Source: Candidatus Calidihabitans tengchongensis (GTDB lineage Bacteria > Sysuimicrobiota > Sysuimicrobiia > Sysuimicrobiales > Kaftiobacteriaceae). From it: a DNA stretch of 64,000 bases. How positions within the stretch are numbered: position 1 is the first letter of the stretch; each line of letters starts with the position of its first letter. This document shows positions 46,760 to 58,558 of the stretch, one piece after another. Both the position numbers and the translations under genes were made by a program. The stretch lies in contig JAVKIE010000004.1 in the NCBI GenBank assembly GCA_031459615.1, positions 76,955 through 140,954 of the forward strand, read 5' to 3'. The notes beneath the pieces are model-generated. The model searched no databases. It was given only the letters and a program-made list of their open reading frames with translations, and was not told the origin of the DNA.

Positions 46760-47200
46760 AAAGCCCGATCTGCATGAGGAAGTGCGCCTAGGGTTCCACG
46801 GTCCCACAAGGGCCGGTCGGTCCAAGCGGCGCAGGCAGCCGGTCAGGCTGTTACACCGTCAGGACAAAAGCCTGAGGGGTAGGTTCCTCACAGGATCTAT
46901 CGCCCAGGCTTTTGTCTATCGTCTGATCGTCGCGGGCGAGGAGGAGAAGCAGTAGGCGGATCGAGGACGCGCCCAGAGAGCCGGACCAGGTGAAAGCCGG
47001 CCGCGTCGCGCCGCCGAACTCGTCTCCGAGCCGCAGCGCCCACGCCCCGGGGGCCGCAGGCGCTGCCGGGTTCCCACCGATACCGGGTTGAGAGCCCCGA
47101 CGGGCGGCCCGCTCATGCGGGCAGGACCGCGCGGCGGGGAACTAAGGTGGTACCGCGGGATCACCCGCCCTTAGGGTGGTCCCGCGGCGTGTTTTCTGAC
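46760..47200 (+). ncRNA. T-box riboswitch leader of the ilvB operon
   Basis: Conserved T-box sequence AACTAAGGTGGTACCGCGGG at 47140-47159 (consensus AAUUAGGGUGGUACCGCGG). Followed by terminator hairpin CCGCGGGATCACCC / GGGTGGTCCCGCGG and GTTTTCT at 47190-47196. An AGAGA motif lies upstream. Exact 5' end not determined. Confidence 0.7.
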
Positions 47201-47207
47201 GACCGAG

Positions 47208-48930
<1,723 letters not shown>

Positions 48931-48938
<8 letters not shown>

Positions 48939-49431
48939 GGGAACCCACGCGGCCACCATCTCGGTCCTGGTCCAGAACGCCCCGGGGGTGCTGGTCCGGG
49001 TGGCCGGGCTGATCCGCCGGCGGGGGGTGAACATCCACAGCCTGTCGGTGGGGCCCACCGAGGACCCGTCCGTGTCCCGGATGACCATCGTGGTGGACAC
49101 GGCCCCCGACCGCACCGAGCAGTTCGCCAAGCAGCTGCGCAAGCTGGTGGAGGTGCTGCGGGCCACCGCCATCGACGGGCTGCCGACGGTGGACCGGGAG
49201 CTGGCGCTGGTCAAGGTCAACGTGACCCCTGGCACGCGGCTGGAGATCATGGAGATCGCCAACGTGTTCCGGGCCAGCGTGGTGGACCTGACCGACCGCA
49301 CCATGACCCTGGAGGTCACCGGCCGGGGCGAGAAGGTGGACGCCTTCATCGAGCTGCTGAAAAAGTACGGGATCCGCGAGATGGCCCGCACCGGCCAGGT
49401 CACCCTGGTGCGGGGAGCGCAGGCAACCTGA
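48931..49431 (+). CDS. ilvN: Acetolactate synthase small (regulatory) subunit
   Basis: ACT domain start [36 protein letters not shown]. 166 aa. 8-nt overlap with ilvB. Confidence 0.9.
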
Positions 49432-49493
49432 CGCGCCGGGGAGGAGGTCCGAGGCCCCCGATCCCGGGCGGGACGCGCAAGGAGGCATGGACG

Positions 49494-50519
49494 ATGGCGA
49501 CCATCTACTACGACCAGGACGCGCCCCTGGACCCGCTGGCGGGCAGGACCGTGGCCGTCGTCGGCTACGGCAGCCAGGGCCACGCCCACGCCCAGAACCT
49601 GCGGGACAGCGGCATCCAGGTGGTGGTGGGGCTGTATCCGGGCGCGCCGTCCTGGGCCCGGGCCACCGCCGACGGTTTCGAGGTGGCGCCCACGGCCGAG
49701 GCGGTGCGCCGGGCGGATGTGGTGGCCATGCTGCTGCCCGACCACGTGCAGCGGCCGACCTACGAGGCGGAGGTGGCCCCGCACCTGGATCCGGGGGACA
49801 CGCTGCTGTTCGCCCACGGCTTCAACATCCACTTTCGACAGATCGTTCCCGCCCCCACCGTGGACGTGGTGATGGTGGCCCCGAAGGCTCCGGGCCACCG
49901 GATGCGGGAGCTGTTCACCGAGGGAGTGGGGGTGCCGGCGCTGCTGGCGGTGCATCAGGACGTGACCGGCCGGGCCCGGGCGACGGCGCTGGCCTACGCC
50001 CGGGCGGTGGGGTGCACCCGCGCCGGGGTCATCGAAACCACCTTCAAGGAGGAGACCGAGACCGACCTGTTCGGGGAGCAGGCGGTGCTGTGCGGGGGGA
50101 TTGCCAGCCTCATCAAGGCCGGGTTCGAGACCCTGGTGGAGGCCGGCTACCAGCCCGAGGTGGCCTACTTCGAGTGCCTCCACGAGATGAAGCTCATCGT
50201 GGACCTCATCTACGAGGGCGGGCTGTCCTACATGCGGTACTCGGTGTCCGACACCGCCGAGTACGGCGACTACAGCCGGGGACACCGGATCATCGACGAG
50301 AAGGTCCGGGCGGAGATGAAGCGGATCCTGCGGGAGGTCCAGGACGGCACGTTCGCCCGGGAGTGGGTCAGCGAAAACAGCGCCGGGCGCCCCAACTTCC
50401 TGGAGCAGCGCCGCCAGGAGGAACGCCATCCCATCGAGGAGGTCGGGCGGCGGCTGCGCGCCATGATGCCCTGGCTGAGCCGCCGCAAGAAGGCAGGCGC
50501 CCCCGCGCCGGCCTCGTGA
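49494..50519 (+). CDS. ilvC: Ketol-acid reductoisomerase (NADP+)
   Basis: [40 protein letters not shown] is a class I KARI. 341 aa. Confidence 0.92.
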
Positions 50520-50533
50520 GGGAGGGACCCGCC

Positions 50534-52081
<1,548 letters not shown>

Positions 52082-52085
52082 GCCG

Positions 52086-53366
52086 ATGGGCATGACCATC
52101 ACCGAGAAGATCCTGGCCGCCCACGTGGGCGCTCCCTCGGTGCGCCCCGGGGACCTCATCGACTGCCCGGTGGACTTCGCGTTTGCCAACGACATCACCG
52201 CGCCCCTGGCCATCCAGGAATTCCAGAAGATGGGCGTGGATCGGGTCTTCGATCCCGACCGGGTGGCCTTCGTCCTCGACCACTACGTGCCCAACAAGGA
52301 CATCGCCTCGGCCCAGCAGTGCAAGGTGACCCGGGAGTTCGTGGCATCCCACGGCCTGCCGCACTTCTTCGACGTGGGCCGCGCGGGGATCGCCCACGTG
52401 CTGCTGGCCGAGCTGGGTTACGTGGTGCCCGGGGATGTGTTCATCGGGGCCGACTCCCACACGTGCAACCACGGGGCGCTGGGAGCCTTCGCCACCGGCG
52501 TGGGGTCGTCGGACCTGGCAGCCGCCCTGGCCCTGGGCCGCCTGTGGCTGCGGGTGCCGGAAACGATCCGCATTGTGTTCCGGGGGCGGCCGCGGCGGTG
52601 GGTGACCGGCAAGGACCTTGTCCTGACCGTCATCGGCGACATCGGGGTGGACGGCGCCCGGTACGCCGCCCTCGAGTTTGCCGGGGACACCCTGGCGCAC
52701 CTGACCATGGACGAGCGGTTCTCCGTGACCAACATGGCGGTCGAGGCCGGCGCCAAAAACGGCATCATGGAGCCCGACGAGACGACCCTGGCGTGGGTGC
52801 GCCCCCGCGCCCGCCGGCCGTTCACCGTCTATCGCAGCGACCCGGACGCCGCCTACGCCGACGTGCGGGAGTACGACGCCGCCGCCCTGGACCCGGTGGT
52901 GGCGGCTCCCTCCTCGCCGGGCAACGTGGTCTCGGTGCGGGAGGCGGCCGGGGTGCGGGTGGACCAGTGCTTCATCGGAACCTGCACCAACGGCCGCCTC
53001 GAGGACCTGCGGGTCGCCGCCCGCATCCTGGCCGGCCGCCGGGTACACCCCTCCACCCGCCTGCTGGTCATCCCCGCCACTCCGGCCATCTACCGGCAGG
53101 CCCTGGAGGAGGGGCTGCTGCAGATCTTCCTGGACGCGGGGGCGGCGGTCAGCACCTCCACCTGCGGGCCCTGCATCGGCGGCCACATGGGCGTGCTGGC
53201 CGACGGCGAGGTGTGCGTCTCGACCAGCAGCCGCAACTTTGTCGGTCGCATGGGCCACCGGGGCAGCCGCGTGTACCTCAGCAATGCGGCGGTGGCCGCG
53301 GCGGCCGCCGTGGCCGGGCGGCTGGTGCACCCCGATGAGGTGGTCGGGGAGACGGCGGCGGTGTAG
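52086..53366 (+). CDS. leuC: 3-isopropylmalate dehydratase large subunit
   Basis: MTITEKILAAH ... aconitase-family Cys ligands (CNHG ... CGPCIG). 426 aa. Confidence 0.9.
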   Translation: MGMTITEKILAAHVGAPSVRPGDLIDCPVDFAFANDITAPLAIQEFQKMGVDRVFDPDRVAFVLDHYVPNKDIASAQQCKVTREFVASHGLPHFFDVGRAGIAHVLLAELGYVVPGDVFIGADSHTCNHGALGAFATGVGSSDLAAALALGRLWLRVPETIRIVFRGRPRRWVTGKDLVLTVIGDIGVDGARYAALEFAGDTLAHLTMDERFSVTNMAVEAGAKNGIMEPDETTLAWVRPRARRPFTVYRSDPDAAYADVREYDAAALDPVVAAPSSPGNVVSVREAAGVRVDQCFIGTCTNGRLEDLRVAARILAGRRVHPSTRLLVIPATPAIYRQALEEGLLQIFLDAGAAVSTSTCGPCIGGHMGVLADGEVCVSTSSRNFVGRMGHRGSRVYLSNAAVAAAAAVAGRLVHPDEVVGETAAV

Positions 53367-53378
53367 GGGGGAGACGCC

Positions 53379-53882
53379 ATGGCGCTGCGCGGACGGGCCC
53401 ACGTCGTGGGCGACCACGTGGACACCGACATCATCATCCCGGCCCGCTACCTGGTCACCACCGATCCGGCCGAGCTGGCCCGGTACGTCTTTGAAGACCT
53501 GGATCCCGCCCTGCGGTCCCGCATCGCTCCGGGCGACGTGCTGGTGGCCGGCGAGAACTTCGGCCAGGGGAGTTCCCGGGAGCATGCCCCCCTGGCCATC
53601 AAGGGGGCGGGCATCAGCTGCATCGTGGCGGCGTCGTTCGCCCGGATCTTCTACCGGAACGCCTTCAACGTCGGGCTGCCGGTGGTGGAGTGCCGCGAAG
53701 CCCGCGGCCGCGTGGCTGACGGCGACGAGCTGGAGGTGGACCTGTCTGCGGGCACGATTCGCAACCTCACCCGGCAGGAGACCTACACCGGCACGCCCGT
53801 GCCGGAGTTCATGCAGCGCCTGCTGGCCGCCGGGGGCCTGGTCGGGTACGTCCGGGCCGAGCTGGCGCGACGCAGGGCGTAG
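53379..53882 (+). CDS. leuD: 3-isopropylmalate dehydratase small subunit
   Basis: VVGDHVDTDIIIPARYL ... GENFGQGSSREHAP. 167 aa. Confidence 0.9.
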   Translation: MALRGRAHVVGDHVDTDIIIPARYLVTTDPAELARYVFEDLDPALRSRIAPGDVLVAGENFGQGSSREHAPLAIKGAGISCIVAASFARIFYRNAFNVGLPVVECREARGRVADGDELEVDLSAGTIRNLTRQETYTGTPVPEFMQRLLAAGGLVGYVRAELARRRA

Positions 53883-53894
53883 GGGAGGACGCCG

Positions 53895-54052
53895 ATGGGA
53901 GACCTGTCCGCGGGCGCCGAGCGCCTGGAATCGTTGCTGCGGACGCTGGCCGAGACGCTGGCGCGCGACCTGGGGCGCGAGCCCACAGATCCGGCGGAGC
54001 TGCGCTGGGTGATCGAGCGCATCCAGGACACCTTCGACACCCGTGCCGGCTG
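53895..54052 (+). CDS. Small hypothetical ORF (52 aa) between leuD and leuB, not in the supplied ORF track
   Basis: AGGGGAGGA RBS sits 5 nt upstream of the ATG at 53895. Product MGDLSAGAERLESLLRTLAETLARDLGREPTDPAELRWVIERIQDTFDTRAG is predicted helical. Its TGA (54050-54052) overlaps the leuB GTG start (54043). Confidence 0.4.
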
Positions 54053-55119
54053 AGCTCCGGGTGGCCCTCCTGCCCGGGGACGGCATCGGGCCGGAGGTGA
54101 TCCGGCACGCGGTCGCCGTCCTGGAAGCCGCCGGGCGGCGGTTCGGCATCCGGATGGTGTTCAGCGAAGCCGCCGTAGGAGGAGCCGCCCTCGACACGGC
54201 CGGCGTGCCCCTGCCCGAGCGGACCCTGGAGATCTGCCGGGCCAGCGACGCGGTCCTGCTGGGAGCCGTCGGCGGCCCCCGGTGGGATCACCTCCCCGGG
54301 CCGGCGCGGCCGGAGGCCGGGCTGTTGCAGCTCCGCCGCGCCCTGGGGGTCTACGCCAACCTGCGCCCCGTGCGGGTGACGCCCGCCCTGGTGGAGGCCT
54401 CCCCCCTGCGCCCCGAGGTGGTGGCCGGGACGGACCTGGTGATCGTGCGGGAGCTGACCGGGGGGCTGTACTTCGGCCAGCCCCGCGGCCGGACCGCCGA
54501 CGGAGCCGTGGACACGATGCGGTACTCCGCCCCCGAGGTGGCCCGGGTGGCACGGGTGGCGATGGCCCTGGCCCGCGCCCGGCGCCGGAAGGTCACCTCG
54601 GTGGACAAGGCCAACGTCCTGGAGACCTCCCGTCTGTGGCGGGAGGTGGTCTCCGCCGAGGCGGCGAAGGCGCCCGACGTGCGGGTGGAACACATGCTGG
54701 TGGACACCTGCGCCCTGCAGCTGGTGCGGGCGCCGGCCCAGTTCGACGTCGTCGTCACCGAGAACATGTTCGGCGACATCCTCAGCGACGCCGCGGGCGC
54801 CGTGGCCGGATCGCTGGGGTTGCTGCCCTCGGCGAGCCTGGGGGATCATCCCCCCTCGCTGTACGAACCCGTCCACGGATCCGCCCCCGATCTGGCCGGC
54901 AGAGGGGTGGCCAACCCGGTGGGGGCCATCCTCAGCGCCGCGCTGCTGCTGCGCCACGCCGCCGGGCACGCGGGGGCCGCCCGGGCCGTGGAGGAGGCGG
55001 TGGACCGGGTGCTGGCCGCGGGCGTGCGGACGCCCGACCTGGGCGGGACGGCCTCCACCGCGGAGGTGGGCGCGGCCGTGGTCGAGGCAGTGGGAGCGGA
55101 CGAGGAGGTGAGGCGATGA
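54043..55119 (+). CDS. leuB: 3-isopropylmalate dehydrogenase
   Basis: VALLPGDGIGPEV ... NLFGDILSD isocitrate/IPM dehydrogenase signature. 358 aa. GTG start. Confidence 0.9.
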   Translation: MPAELRVALLPGDGIGPEVIRHAVAVLEAAGRRFGIRMVFSEAAVGGAALDTAGVPLPERTLEICRASDAVLLGAVGGPRWDHLPGPARPEAGLLQLRRALGVYANLRPVRVTPALVEASPLRPEVVAGTDLVIVRELTGGLYFGQPRGRTADGAVDTMRYSAPEVARVARVAMALARARRRKVTSVDKANVLETSRLWREVVSAEAAKAPDVRVEHMLVDTCALQLVRAPAQFDVVVTENMFGDILSDAAGAVAGSLGLLPSASLGDHPPSLYEPVHGSAPDLAGRGVANPVGAILSAALLLRHAAGHAGAARAVEEAVDRVLAAGVRTPDLGGTASTAEVGAAVVEAVGADEEVRR

Positions 55120-56789
55120 GCGCGCCGCTGCGCGCCCGCAGCGCGCCGATGCTGGATGGCCCGGACCGGGCGCCGGCCCGGGCCTACATGTACGCCCTGG
55201 GGTGGACCGAGGAGGACCTGCGCAAGCCCCTGGTGGGCATCGCCAATACCTGGATCGAGATGATGCCCTGCAACGTCCACCTGCGCCGGCTCGCGGACGC
55301 GGTCCGCGCCGGGGTGCGGGCCGCGGGGGGGACTCCGGTAGAGTTCAACACCATCGCCATCTCCGACGGCATCTCCATGGGGACGGAGGGCATGCGCACC
55401 TCCCTGGTCAGCCGCGAGGTGATCGCCGACTCCATCGAGCTGGTGGCCCGGGGCTACTCGCTGGACGCCCTGGTGGCGATTTCCGGATGCGACAAGACCA
55501 TCCCCGGCACCGTGATGGCCCTGGCCCGGCTGGATCTTCCCGCGGTCATGATTTACGGCGGCTCGATCCTGCCGGGCGAGGTGGACGGGCGGGCGGTGAC
55601 CATCCAGGACGTCTTCGAGGCGGTCGGCGCCTACCACGCCGGCCGGATCACCCTGGAGGAGCTGCGGCGGCTGGAGGCCGCGGCCTGCCCGGGGCCGGGA
55701 GCGTGCGGGGGGCAGTTCACCGCCAACACCATGGCGATGGCGTGCGAGTTCCTGGGGATCTCCCCCCTGGGGGCGAACGAGATTCCCGCGGTCGACGGAG
55801 CCAAGGACGGCGCCGCCGAAGCCGTCGGGCGGCTGGCGATGGACGTCCTCCGGGCGGACCGTCGGCCGCGCCGGATCATCACCCGCCAGGCGCTGGAAAA
55901 CGCCATCACCGCCGTGGCCAGCAGCGGCGGGTCCACCAACGCCGTGCTCCACCTGCTGGCCATCGCCCGCGAGGCGGGGGTGGACCTGAGCCTGGACGAC
56001 TTCGACCGCCTCAGCGCCCGGACGCCTCTGCTGGCCGACCTGCGGCCCGGGGGCCGGTTCAGCGCGCCCGACCTGTACCGCGCGGGCGGGACCCGCCTGC
56101 TGGCCCGGCGGTTGCTGGAGGCCGGGCTGCTGCACGGGGAGGCGCTGACGATCACCGGGAAGACCCTGGGCGAGGAGGCGGCCGCCGCCCGCGAGACCCC
56201 CGGCCAGGAGGTGATCCGCCCGCTGGACCGCCCCCTCAAACCGTGGGGCGGGCTGGCGATCCTGCGGGGCAACCTCGCCCCGGAGGGGTGCGTGGTCAAG
56301 CTGGCGGGAGGGGAACGCCAGCAGCACCGGGGACCGGCCCGGGTGTTCGACGGGGAGGAGGCCGCATTCGCGGCGGTGCGGAGCGGCGAGGTCCGCCCCG
56401 GAGACGTGGTGGTGATCCGCTACGAAGGGCCCGGCGGAGGTCCCGGCATGCGGGAGATGCTACTGGTGACCGCCGCCCTCGTGGGCGCCGGCCTGGGGGA
56501 GTCGGTGGCGCTGGTGACCGACGGCAGGTTCTCAGGAGCCACCCGGGGGCTCATGGTCGGCCACGTGGCCCCCGAGGCCGCCCGGGGAGGGCCCCTGGCC
56601 GCCCTCCGGGACGGCGACGTGATCACCATCGACGTGCCGTCCCGCCGCCTGGACGTGGACCTGTCGGCGGACGAGATCCGCGCGCGCCTGAGCCGCTGGT
56701 CCCCGCCGCCCCCGCGGTACGCCACCGGCGCCCTGGCCAAGTACGCCCGCCTGGTTTCCTCGGCGGCCGAGGGAGCGGTGACGGGCTGA
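55116..56789 (+). CDS. ilvD: Dihydroxy-acid dehydratase
   Basis: ATG overlaps the leuB stop (ATGA). Motifs CDKTIPG and GPGACGG...TANTM are present (IlvD/EDD family signatures). 557 aa. Confidence 0.9.
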   Translation: MSAPLRARSAPMLDGPDRAPARAYMYALGWTEEDLRKPLVGIANTWIEMMPCNVHLRRLADAVRAGVRAAGGTPVEFNTIAISDGISMGTEGMRTSLVSREVIADSIELVARGYSLDALVAISGCDKTIPGTVMALARLDLPAVMIYGGSILPGEVDGRAVTIQDVFEAVGAYHAGRITLEELRRLEAAACPGPGACGGQFTANTMAMACEFLGISPLGANEIPAVDGAKDGAAEAVGRLAMDVLRADRRPRRIITRQALENAITAVASSGGSTNAVLHLLAIAREAGVDLSLDDFDRLSARTPLLADLRPGGRFSAPDLYRAGGTRLLARRLLEAGLLHGEALTITGKTLGEEAAAARETPGQEVIRPLDRPLKPWGGLAILRGNLAPEGCVVKLAGGERQQHRGPARVFDGEEAAFAAVRSGEVRPGDVVVIRYEGPGGGPGMREMLLVTAALVGAGLGESVALVTDGRFSGATRGLMVGHVAPEAARGGPLAALRDGDVITIDVPSRRLDVDLSADEIRARLSRWSPPPPRYATGALAKYARLVSSAAEGAVTG

Positions 56790-56880
56790 CGACGGCACAG
56801 CCGGCGGGCGAGGCCCCCACAACGACCGGGGGCCGCCCGGGCAGCGGCCCCCGGTCGCGTCCGGGTCGCGTTCCCGCGGC

Positions 56881-58558
<1,678 letters not shown>

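Follow-up and report, generated by a model that had tools for sequence, protein, structure and literature searches.

A conserved small gene between leuD and leuB that encodes a candidate microprotein and is probably coupled to leuB translation in an uncultured bacterial clade

The stretch of DNA analysed here, referred to as the window, comprises 64,000 nucleotides (nt) of contig JAVKIE010000004.1 of Candidatus Calidihabitans tengchongensis (assembly GCA_031459615.1). It has a guanine plus cytosine (GC) content of 73% and carries an ilv-leu operon in which a small open reading frame (sORF) of 52 codons is wedged between leuD and leuB (Table 1). The first-pass annotation of the window had placed this sORF between the two genes, with a Shine-Dalgarno sequence (SD) AGGGGAGGA 5 nt upstream of its ATG and a TGA overlapping the GTG start codon of leuB; frame, translation, SD and an 11-nt overlap are found as described, while the end of the frame, given as 54052, was one base short. 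The SD overlaps the leuD stop codon TAG (53880-53882), and at the opposite end the leuB GTG lies within sORF codons R50-A51 and the sORF TGA within leuB codons 3-4. The frame had been called unlisted, which holds for the open reading frame (ORF) track supplied with the sequence, but not for NCBI, which already has the product as hypothetical protein QN173_10745 (MDQ7821084.1). Most annotations overlook proteins of less than 60 amino acids (aa) or enter them only as 'hypothetical', and to our knowledge very few small proteins have been recognized in amino-acid biosynthesis operons.

Table 1. Features of the ilv-leu operon and of the leuD-sORF-leuB junction in the window.
Feature	Position	Strand	Remarks
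Guanidine-I/ykkC-like RNA element	46777-46880	+	Rfam 59.9 bits, gathering 63, E 3.7e-10
T-box-leader-like RNA element with AAGGTGGTACCGCGGG, then hairpin and T-run	46930-47175	+	Rfam 58.7 bits, gathering 93, E 3e-12
ilvB	47208-48938	+	start listed as GTG
ilvN	between ilvB and ilvC	+	
ilvC	49494-50519	+	
leuA	end 52081	+	
leuC	52086-53366	+	
leuD, short archaeal-type (type II) small subunit of 3-isopropylmalate dehydratase, 167 aa	53379..53882	+	Pfam Aconitase_C 1.5e-17; NCBIfam LEUD_arch 195.6 bits (cut-off 109)
sORF Shine-Dalgarno AGGGGAGGA	53881..53889	+	5 nt (CGCCG) before ATG; anti-SD duplex -10.5 kcal/mol
sORF, 52 codons and TGA, product MGDLSAGAERLESLLRTLAETLARDLGREPTDPAELRWVIERIQDTFDTRAG	53895..54053	+	ATG 53895, TGA 54051-54053
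N-terminal amphipathic helix module, residues ~9-26, ERLESLLRTLAETLARDL	53919..53972	+	subfamily-A alignment; AlphaFold2 helix 3-26
Variable linker, residues 27-37	53973..54005	+	indels and near-neutral evolution across family (alignments)
C-terminal motif WVIERIQDTFDTRAG	54006..54050	+	alignments; pN vs pS
11-nt stop/start overlap GTGCCGGCTGA	54043..54053	+	
leuB, 3-isopropylmalate dehydrogenase, 358 aa, GTG start	54043..55119	+	Pfam Iso_dh 7.9e-133; TIGR00169 leuB 483 bits
ilvD	55116-56789	+	

An open frame alone is no evidence for a gene in this window, since at its base composition a 52-codon frame stays open by chance with P=0.44 and 354 ORFs of at least 52 codons are present. That ORF length says nothing here is illustrated by three very long ORFs of 726, 386 and 257 aa (52017-54197 and 53809-54969 on the minus strand, 53239-54012 on the plus strand), which run across leuC, leuD, the sORF and leuB in antisense or in a different frame and are the usual artefacts of 73% GC. 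The GC contents at the first, second and third codon positions (GC1/2/3) of the sORF are.74/.53/.89 (GC2 0.528, GC3 0.887), with.72/.49/.94 for leuC and.73/.49/.92 for leuD; GC3 is thus far above the GC of 0.63-0.70 in three intergenic stretches of the window. A GC3 of at least 0.88 together with a GC2 of at most 0.55, thresholds that the sORF reaches, is found for 1 of 83 window ORFs of 52-80 codons. The ratio of nonsynonymous to synonymous substitutions (dN/dS; Nei-Gojobori, six genome pairs) amounts to 0.18-0.27 for the sORF, and to 0.11-0.29 and 0.14-0.28 for leuD and leuB, respectively, in the same pairs.

A search of 5.8 billion proteins retrieves the identical protein, entered as 'hypothetical protein QN173_10745, Armatimonadota bacterium', and three relatives with 83-88% identity, all of them encoded between leuD and leuB. 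Among these loci the spacer between leuD and the sORF measures 12, 85 or -4 nt, the 85-nt spacer (locus L003) being without counterpart in other loci; despite these spacer changes the close relatives retain the sORF at the same position, its SD and the stop/start overlap, and their sole length difference is an in-frame one-codon deletion in one relative. Judged from these sequence comparisons, the 52-codon ORF is a genuine small-protein gene conserved under purifying selection, and its earlier assignment as a real small gene is strongly supported by conservation, GC3 and the pattern of substitutions.

The sORF product belongs to a family of small proteins. An iterated profile search of 1.84 billion protein representatives, in which only small proteins matched, yielded 39 clusters of 40-57 aa that constitute subfamily A, and a final search seeded with the peptides of loci L024 and L065 led to about 57 clusters, all of 40-57 aa. 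The family length is 46-57 aa with the exception of one called product of 40 aa, and a fusion to a larger protein is found in none of the 57 clusters. A 417-aa protein (P0070), listed in the 90%-identity cluster of the 50-aa sORF products of P0026, was considered as a fusion and rejected as a clustering artefact, as it has no visible similarity to sORF products; from its sequence we take it by eye to be radical S-adenosylmethionine (SAM)-like.

The C-terminus of subfamily A is almost invariant and reads [DE]-W-V-I-E-R-I-Q-[DE]-[ST]-F-[DN]-S-R-A-[GRQ]-stop, with W38, V39, I40, E41, R42, I43, Q44, F47 and R50 invariant in the 39 clusters and two later-found clusters differing by one motif change each (WVIECIQ and WVIQRIQ). 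The N-terminal helix of this subfamily is weakly to moderately conserved as LExLFkxLtet. Subfamily B, with locus L024 encoding MSLPQRPRRGEESKIRTDPAETDPEQENTEEGWVVTQIQESFESRA and a low-complexity N-terminus, and subfamily C, with locus L065 encoding MEWRQVWHTLFCGWDGDVDLAVLAEELRANGKGKAGDDHDPAWVCRQIQEAY and the further loci L104-L106, occupy the same operon slot as subfamily A. Common to the three subfamilies is the core W-V-x-x-x-I-Q-[DE]-x-[FY], while the N-termini have diverged beyond alignment; retention across three such diverged subfamilies would mark this 10-residue core as a functional contact surface.

With respect to genomic context, the order leuA-leuC-leuD-sORF-leuB, usually followed by ilvD, is found in 21/21 subfamily-A loci, which include eight species-level metagenome-assembled genomes (MAGs) from a genome collection scanned with the pattern WVIERIQ[DE] only. 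Over the three subfamilies an ilv-leu operon is the setting in all 26 distinct contexts examined, and the sORF stands directly upstream of leuB at every locus examined except for one variant. The variant (metagenome contigs L102/L103, 3408-6609) has the order ilvN-leuA-leuC-leuD-(second LeuA-like synthase, 524 aa)-sORF-(aldehyde dehydrogenase, 480 aa)-leuB; in no other context seen does the sORF, which is intact here, adjoin neither leuD nor leuB. The carrier genomes are filed in NCBI under Armatimonadota, 'Bacillati bacterium ANGP1' or 'bacterium'. Cumulatively, the sORF family is fixed in the ilvBNC-leuA-leuC-leuD-[sORF]-leuB-ilvD operon of an uncultured bacterial clade.

Outside of the family, a LeuB-based scan of metagenome contigs provided 80 outgroup loci. 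An archaeal-type leuD directly upstream of leuB without a sORF homologue is present in 14 outgroup loci, with a gap of 8-45 nt in nine of them and a longer gap that holds no related ORF in the other five. The two closest outgroups (LeuC 80% and 74% identical), the loci L024 and L065 of subfamilies B and C, carry divergent homologues which the sequence searches had missed. At one locus (L064, ~2170-2490) an unrelated ORF of ~105 aa fills the gap between leuD and leuB; at three others (L074, L075 and L101), two of which are labelled human gut metagenome, a ~190-nt gap contains no ORF and possibly a regulatory RNA.

Selection is unevenly distributed along the peptide. Among 15 distinct loci of subfamily A, the proportions of synonymous and nonsynonymous differences (pS and pN) are 0.50 and 0.044 in the motif minus its leuB-overlapping part (pN/pS 0.09), and 0.56 and 0.36 in the N-terminal part (pN/pS 0.65). 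In subfamily C, the N-terminal 27 residues have a pS of 0.52 and a pN of 0.13 (pN/pS 0.25), the linker 0.56 and 0.42 (pN/pS 0.74) and the C-terminal 10 residues 0.55 and 0.021 (pN/pS 0.04). The codon table of the motif displays freely varying synonymous codons at V39, E41, R42, I43, D45, S46, F47, D48 and S49. On the other hand, CGT is the sole codon seen for R50, and A51 has GCC in 14/15 loci (GGG in L003), codons constrained because the leuB GTG lies in them. As the amino acids of the motif are fixed while its synonymous sites vary, selection, by this measure, targets the peptide rather than a signal in the RNA.

Peptide-level selection agrees with the RNA analyses, in which the region 53870-54075 shows no excess of fold stability over shuffled sequences (z = 0.48) and no relevant Rfam match occurs within 49000-57000. 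An RNA element in place of a gene was rejected on these two grounds and because no promoter or terminator was found at the junction; a terminator-like site was likewise absent near the leuD-sORF-leuB junction. Retention of I-Q-[DE] as a leuB SD (CAGGAG) was rejected as the main cause of conservation, with L065 encoding I-Q-E by ATT CAA GAA. A leucine-codon attenuator does not fit either, the Leu content of the peptide not being conserved.

The sequence features around the two start codons point to translational coupling. The leuB SD has an energy of -4.0 kcal/mol versus -7.1 to -15.6 kcal/mol for five other operon genes of the window, which start with ATG, and among the operon genes scored leuB is the only one with a GTG start and no well-placed SD, ilvB with its listed GTG start aside. 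The sORF starts with ATG in the loci scored and has an SD of -9.3 to -15.5 kcal/mol in 12/13 (-7.0 in L102), and leuB starts with GTG in 18/18 sORF-bearing loci, behind a weak, badly spaced SD of -1.6 to -7.4 kcal/mol. In the 14 outgroup loci that lack the sORF, leuB is preceded by an SD of its own (-6.8 to -11.5 kcal/mol), and in 10 of them the start with the best SD is an ATG. LeuB is therefore probably translated mainly by ribosomes that terminate on the sORF.

The geometry of stop and start differs between the subfamilies, with an 11-nt overlap in A, an 8-nt overlap in B and a TAG directly followed by GTG in C; exceptions are a 24-nt gap in L106 and an insertion in L010. In the latter locus and in L011, an insertion of ~60 nt separates the sORF stop from the conserved N-terminus of LeuB, the leuB start being a GTG that overlaps the stop (GTGA) or an ATG ~40 nt downstream and LeuB then being N-terminally extended; both loci keep the sORF tail SRAG-stop and the now out-of-frame GTG. 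In L102 the GTG of the aldehyde dehydrogenase gene follows one base after the sORF stop, which is the coupled position, and the displaced leuB, here with its own SD, has gained GGAGGGAGG.

Two ways in which the sORF could extend a neighbouring protein were discarded. Extension of the LeuB N-terminus by frameshift or readthrough is at variance with the reading frames, since subfamilies A and B have leuB in the +1 frame, subfamily C has it in the sORF frame, and L102 has a different gene at this place; moreover, no slippery site and, among the 57 clusters or the 1.84 billion representatives, no fused protein was found. For a leuD-sORF readthrough fusion, the two ORFs share a frame in the window and at L001 but are out of frame at L003 and L006; such a fusion is thus not conserved.

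With respect to the product, the first-pass annotation had predicted an acidic and helical peptide, and both properties hold: 11 aspartate and glutamate residues stand against 7 lysine and arginine residues (isoelectric point 4.5), and AlphaFold2 (AF2) predicts a helix-loop-helix fold with helices 3-26 and 33-51 (predicted local distance difference test, pLDDT, 83-85). A helical-wheel estimate places V39, I40, I43 and F47 on one face of the amphipathic second helix and E41, Q44, D45 and D48 on the opposite face. Pfam gives 0 matches at E <= 1 and only noise at E <= 10, and the NCBIfam profile search with the sORF product gives none. The sequence search of the PDB finds only designed helical proteins (E >= 0.05), and the best Foldseek hit against the PDB has an E of 1.9. 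Searched with the family profiles, all six-frame ORFs of the window match at the sORF alone (next best E > 3), so that no similarity to the neighbouring enzymes is seen.

The 5' end of the operon has its own candidate control elements, a ykkC-like and a T-box-like element in tandem upstream of ilvB. Both Rfam matches score under the gathering thresholds and are consequently not in the default scan. 5' control of the ilv-leu operon appears to be exerted by the T-box and the ykkC-like element; the ppGpp-binding (guanosine tetraphosphate-binding) ykkC subtype 2a is typical of branched-chain amino-acid operons. At the 3' end, only ~90 nt separate the end of ilvD (56789) from groEL on the minus strand (56881-58509) in the window; in L010 (8061-8216) and L012 (8105-8260) a second small ORF (51 aa, Pfam DUF1059) is located after ilvD and before the convergent groEL.

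Overall, we judge it probable, though well short of certain, that the sORF encodes a trans-acting, two-helix acidic microprotein of the leucine pathway, the translation of which also drives leuB by termination-reinitiation. Ribosomes would load at the SD of the sORF, terminate at its stop codon and re-initiate at the leuB GTG, which would tie LeuB synthesis to sORF translation, with both products made in one place by shared ribosomes. Once released, the acidic two-helix peptide would act in trans, with its invariant C-terminal helix binding an enzyme of the leucine branch; LeuB would be the most likely partner, ranked first because of the translational coupling, followed by the LeuC/LeuD dehydratase. 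The peptide may serve as an accessory subunit or as a modulator of activity or stability, comparable to AcnSP, CP12 and IF7 with other metabolic enzymes. Counted from the motif tryptophan, the stop is 15, 14 and 10 codons away in subfamilies A, B and C, and it is TGA or TAG; this variation and the intact sORF in L102 were counted in favour of action in trans.

Several observations weigh against this interpretation. The link to the leucine pathway is drawn solely from the position of the gene, with a peptide that resembles no neighbouring enzyme and no known family. All carriers of the sORF are MAGs. Conservation peaks over the final 10-15 residues, which adjoin the stop and the SD-poor start of leuB, a pattern that would also be expected of a nascent peptide acting in cis. 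Furthermore, in subfamilies A and B a weak AGGA or AGGAG precedes the leuB GTG by 13-14 nt, and leuB may to some extent be initiated independently.

The lack of similarity of the peptide to any Leu or Ilv enzyme or known family, and the L102/L103 arrangement with a sORF next to neither leuD nor leuB, would also suit a real small protein with a target outside the leucine enzymes, for example a regulator, stress or assembly factor that resides in the operon for co-expression only. We consider such a target unlikely, since 26 out of 26 distinct contexts are ilv-leu operons although they span three subfamilies with N-termini past alignment, and one operon position kept over such divergence argues for a function tied to these genes.

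Quite unlikely is a cis-acting regulatory nascent peptide, the C-terminus of which would engage the exit tunnel and slow termination or elongation, such that the paused ribosome covers the leuB GTG and gates re-initiation. Such a pause might be sensitive to a metabolite (compare TnaC, SpeFL and the fungal arginine attenuator peptide) or to force pulling at the N-terminal module (compare SecM and MifM). The distribution of conservation fits this proposal, the last 10-15 residues, which immediately precede the stop and the SD-poor leuB GTG, being the most conserved (pN 0.02-0.04 with unconstrained synonymous sites) and the N-terminal part and linker far more variable, with low complexity at the N-terminus of subfamily B. 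Subfamily A ends with R-A-G or R-A-R before UGA, an ending reminiscent of R-A-G-P in SecM and of A-R-stop in SpeFL. For TnaC and PepNL, arrest by the nascent peptide at UGA has been documented (PMC8450073, PMC11890864).

However, the register between motif and stop, 15, 14 or 10 codons, is not kept, and the SRAG/SRAR tail is absent from subfamily C. The stop codon itself differs (TGA or TAG), as does the geometry with an 11-nt or 8-nt overlap, a 0- or 24-nt gap and, in one context, another downstream gene. The N-terminal module is also under purifying selection (pN/pS 0.25 in subfamily C), there is no RNA structure for a stalled ribosome to remodel (fold z = 0.48, no Rfam match), and the operon appears to have 5' RNA leaders, both as matches under the Rfam gathering scores. 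A released microprotein is thus favoured over an arrest peptide due to the varying register, stops and geometry, the selected N-terminal module and the apparent 5' RNA leaders. The far-reaching version of the proposal, in which a new class of intercistronic regulatory nascent peptide pauses the ribosome atop the leuB start by its W-V-x-x-x-I-Q-E-x-F helix, with the pause relieved or enforced by a metabolite of the leucine pathway or by a partner of the N-terminal module such as freshly made LeuCD and LeuB synthesis thereby gated at re-initiation, is decidedly improbable.

That the sORF serves purely as a spacer for translational coupling, or is open by chance in a GC-rich intergenic gap, with a peptide sequence of no relevance, is hardly credible, since against an open 52-codon frame with a P of about 0.44 at this GC and the commonness of stop/start overlaps in operons stand mostly synonymous substitutions (dN/dS 0.18-0.27; motif pN 0.044 vs pS 0.50), a codon-position GC of coding type, indels in frame, an ATG and SD kept in all loci and a true adjacent spacer in L003 (85 nt) without counterpart elsewhere. 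The first-pass proposal of a translational-coupling device for leuB, made as the alternative to a small regulatory or assembly protein, therefore stands with respect to coupling, which the sequence features support, but not with respect to a pure spacer, which is excluded as the peptide, rather than the nucleotide sequence, is under selection.

The closest functional precedent for the proposed trans-acting microprotein is AcnSP of Synechocystis sp. PCC 6803, a plasmid-encoded 44-aa peptide that alters Km and Vmax of the aconitase AcnB, part of whose N-terminus it duplicates (PMC7336809). Like AcnSP, the sORF product is a peptide of ~50 aa, too small for an enzyme, associated with an enzyme of the aconitase superfamily or of central metabolism and proposed to tune that enzyme by binding. 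Unlike AcnSP, it is encoded within the operon and has no similarity to LeuC, LeuD, LeuB or another window ORF; an origin as fragment or duplicate of a neighbouring enzyme was rejected upon the negative profile search of the six-frame window ORFs. AcnSP with aconitase may hence be viewed as a functional precedent by analogy, not as a relative.

The sORF shares with translationally coupled gene pairs a strong SD on the upstream ORF and a downstream start in or next to its stop without a good SD. It differs in that the upstream partner is a dedicated 50-codon ORF under strong peptide selection and not the preceding enzyme gene, and in that the dependence is inferred. A small acidic protein beside archaeal-type aconitase-family subunits is also found with LysW. 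LysW and related amino-group carrier proteins of ~54 aa are encoded in the lysine/arginine clusters of Thermus and archaea next to homoaconitase genes, and LysW possesses a CxxC...CxxC zinc finger and a C-terminal EDWGE tail. In contrast, the window sORF product has no cysteine, ends with FDTRAG and has no NCBIfam or Pfam match.

Small ORFs in leucine or ilv operons are otherwise represented by the leader peptides LeuL, IlvL and IvbL and the family PF08054 (Leu_leader), to which the sORF has no Pfam match. Unlike LeuL, IlvL and IvbL, the sORF is not located at the 5' end, lacks a stretch of Leu, Ile or Val codons (a single Leu occurs in the subfamily-B peptide) and is not accompanied by a terminator/antiterminator. 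With TnaC, SpeFL and PepNL (PMC8450073, PMC11890864) it has in common a short ORF directly upstream of a regulated metabolic-operon gene and conservation at the C-terminus by the UGA. These peptides are 5' leaders of 14-34 aa with key residues at a fixed distance from the stall codon, whereas the sORF lies between two cistrons, encodes 46-57 aa, has a second conserved module at the N-terminus and a variable register to the stop.

A literature search on the motif string and on a small ORF between leuD and leuB returned nothing relevant, and no description appears to exist of the family, of its motif, of its constant place in the operon or of its connection with leuB initiation. In kind, it is a new family of a general type already known, that of operon-embedded bacterial microproteins translationally coupled to their neighbours. 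In the clade that carries it, the sORF appears, by the start-site comparison, to have taken over translation initiation of leuB, and the amount of LeuB, the third enzyme of leucine biosynthesis, would then depend on the translation of a microprotein. Should the peptide indeed bind LeuB or the Fe-S dehydratase LeuCD, a textbook pathway would have an accessory subunit or modulator that has gone unrecognized; action of the peptide in the ribosome tunnel would instead represent a new type of intra-operon translational control.

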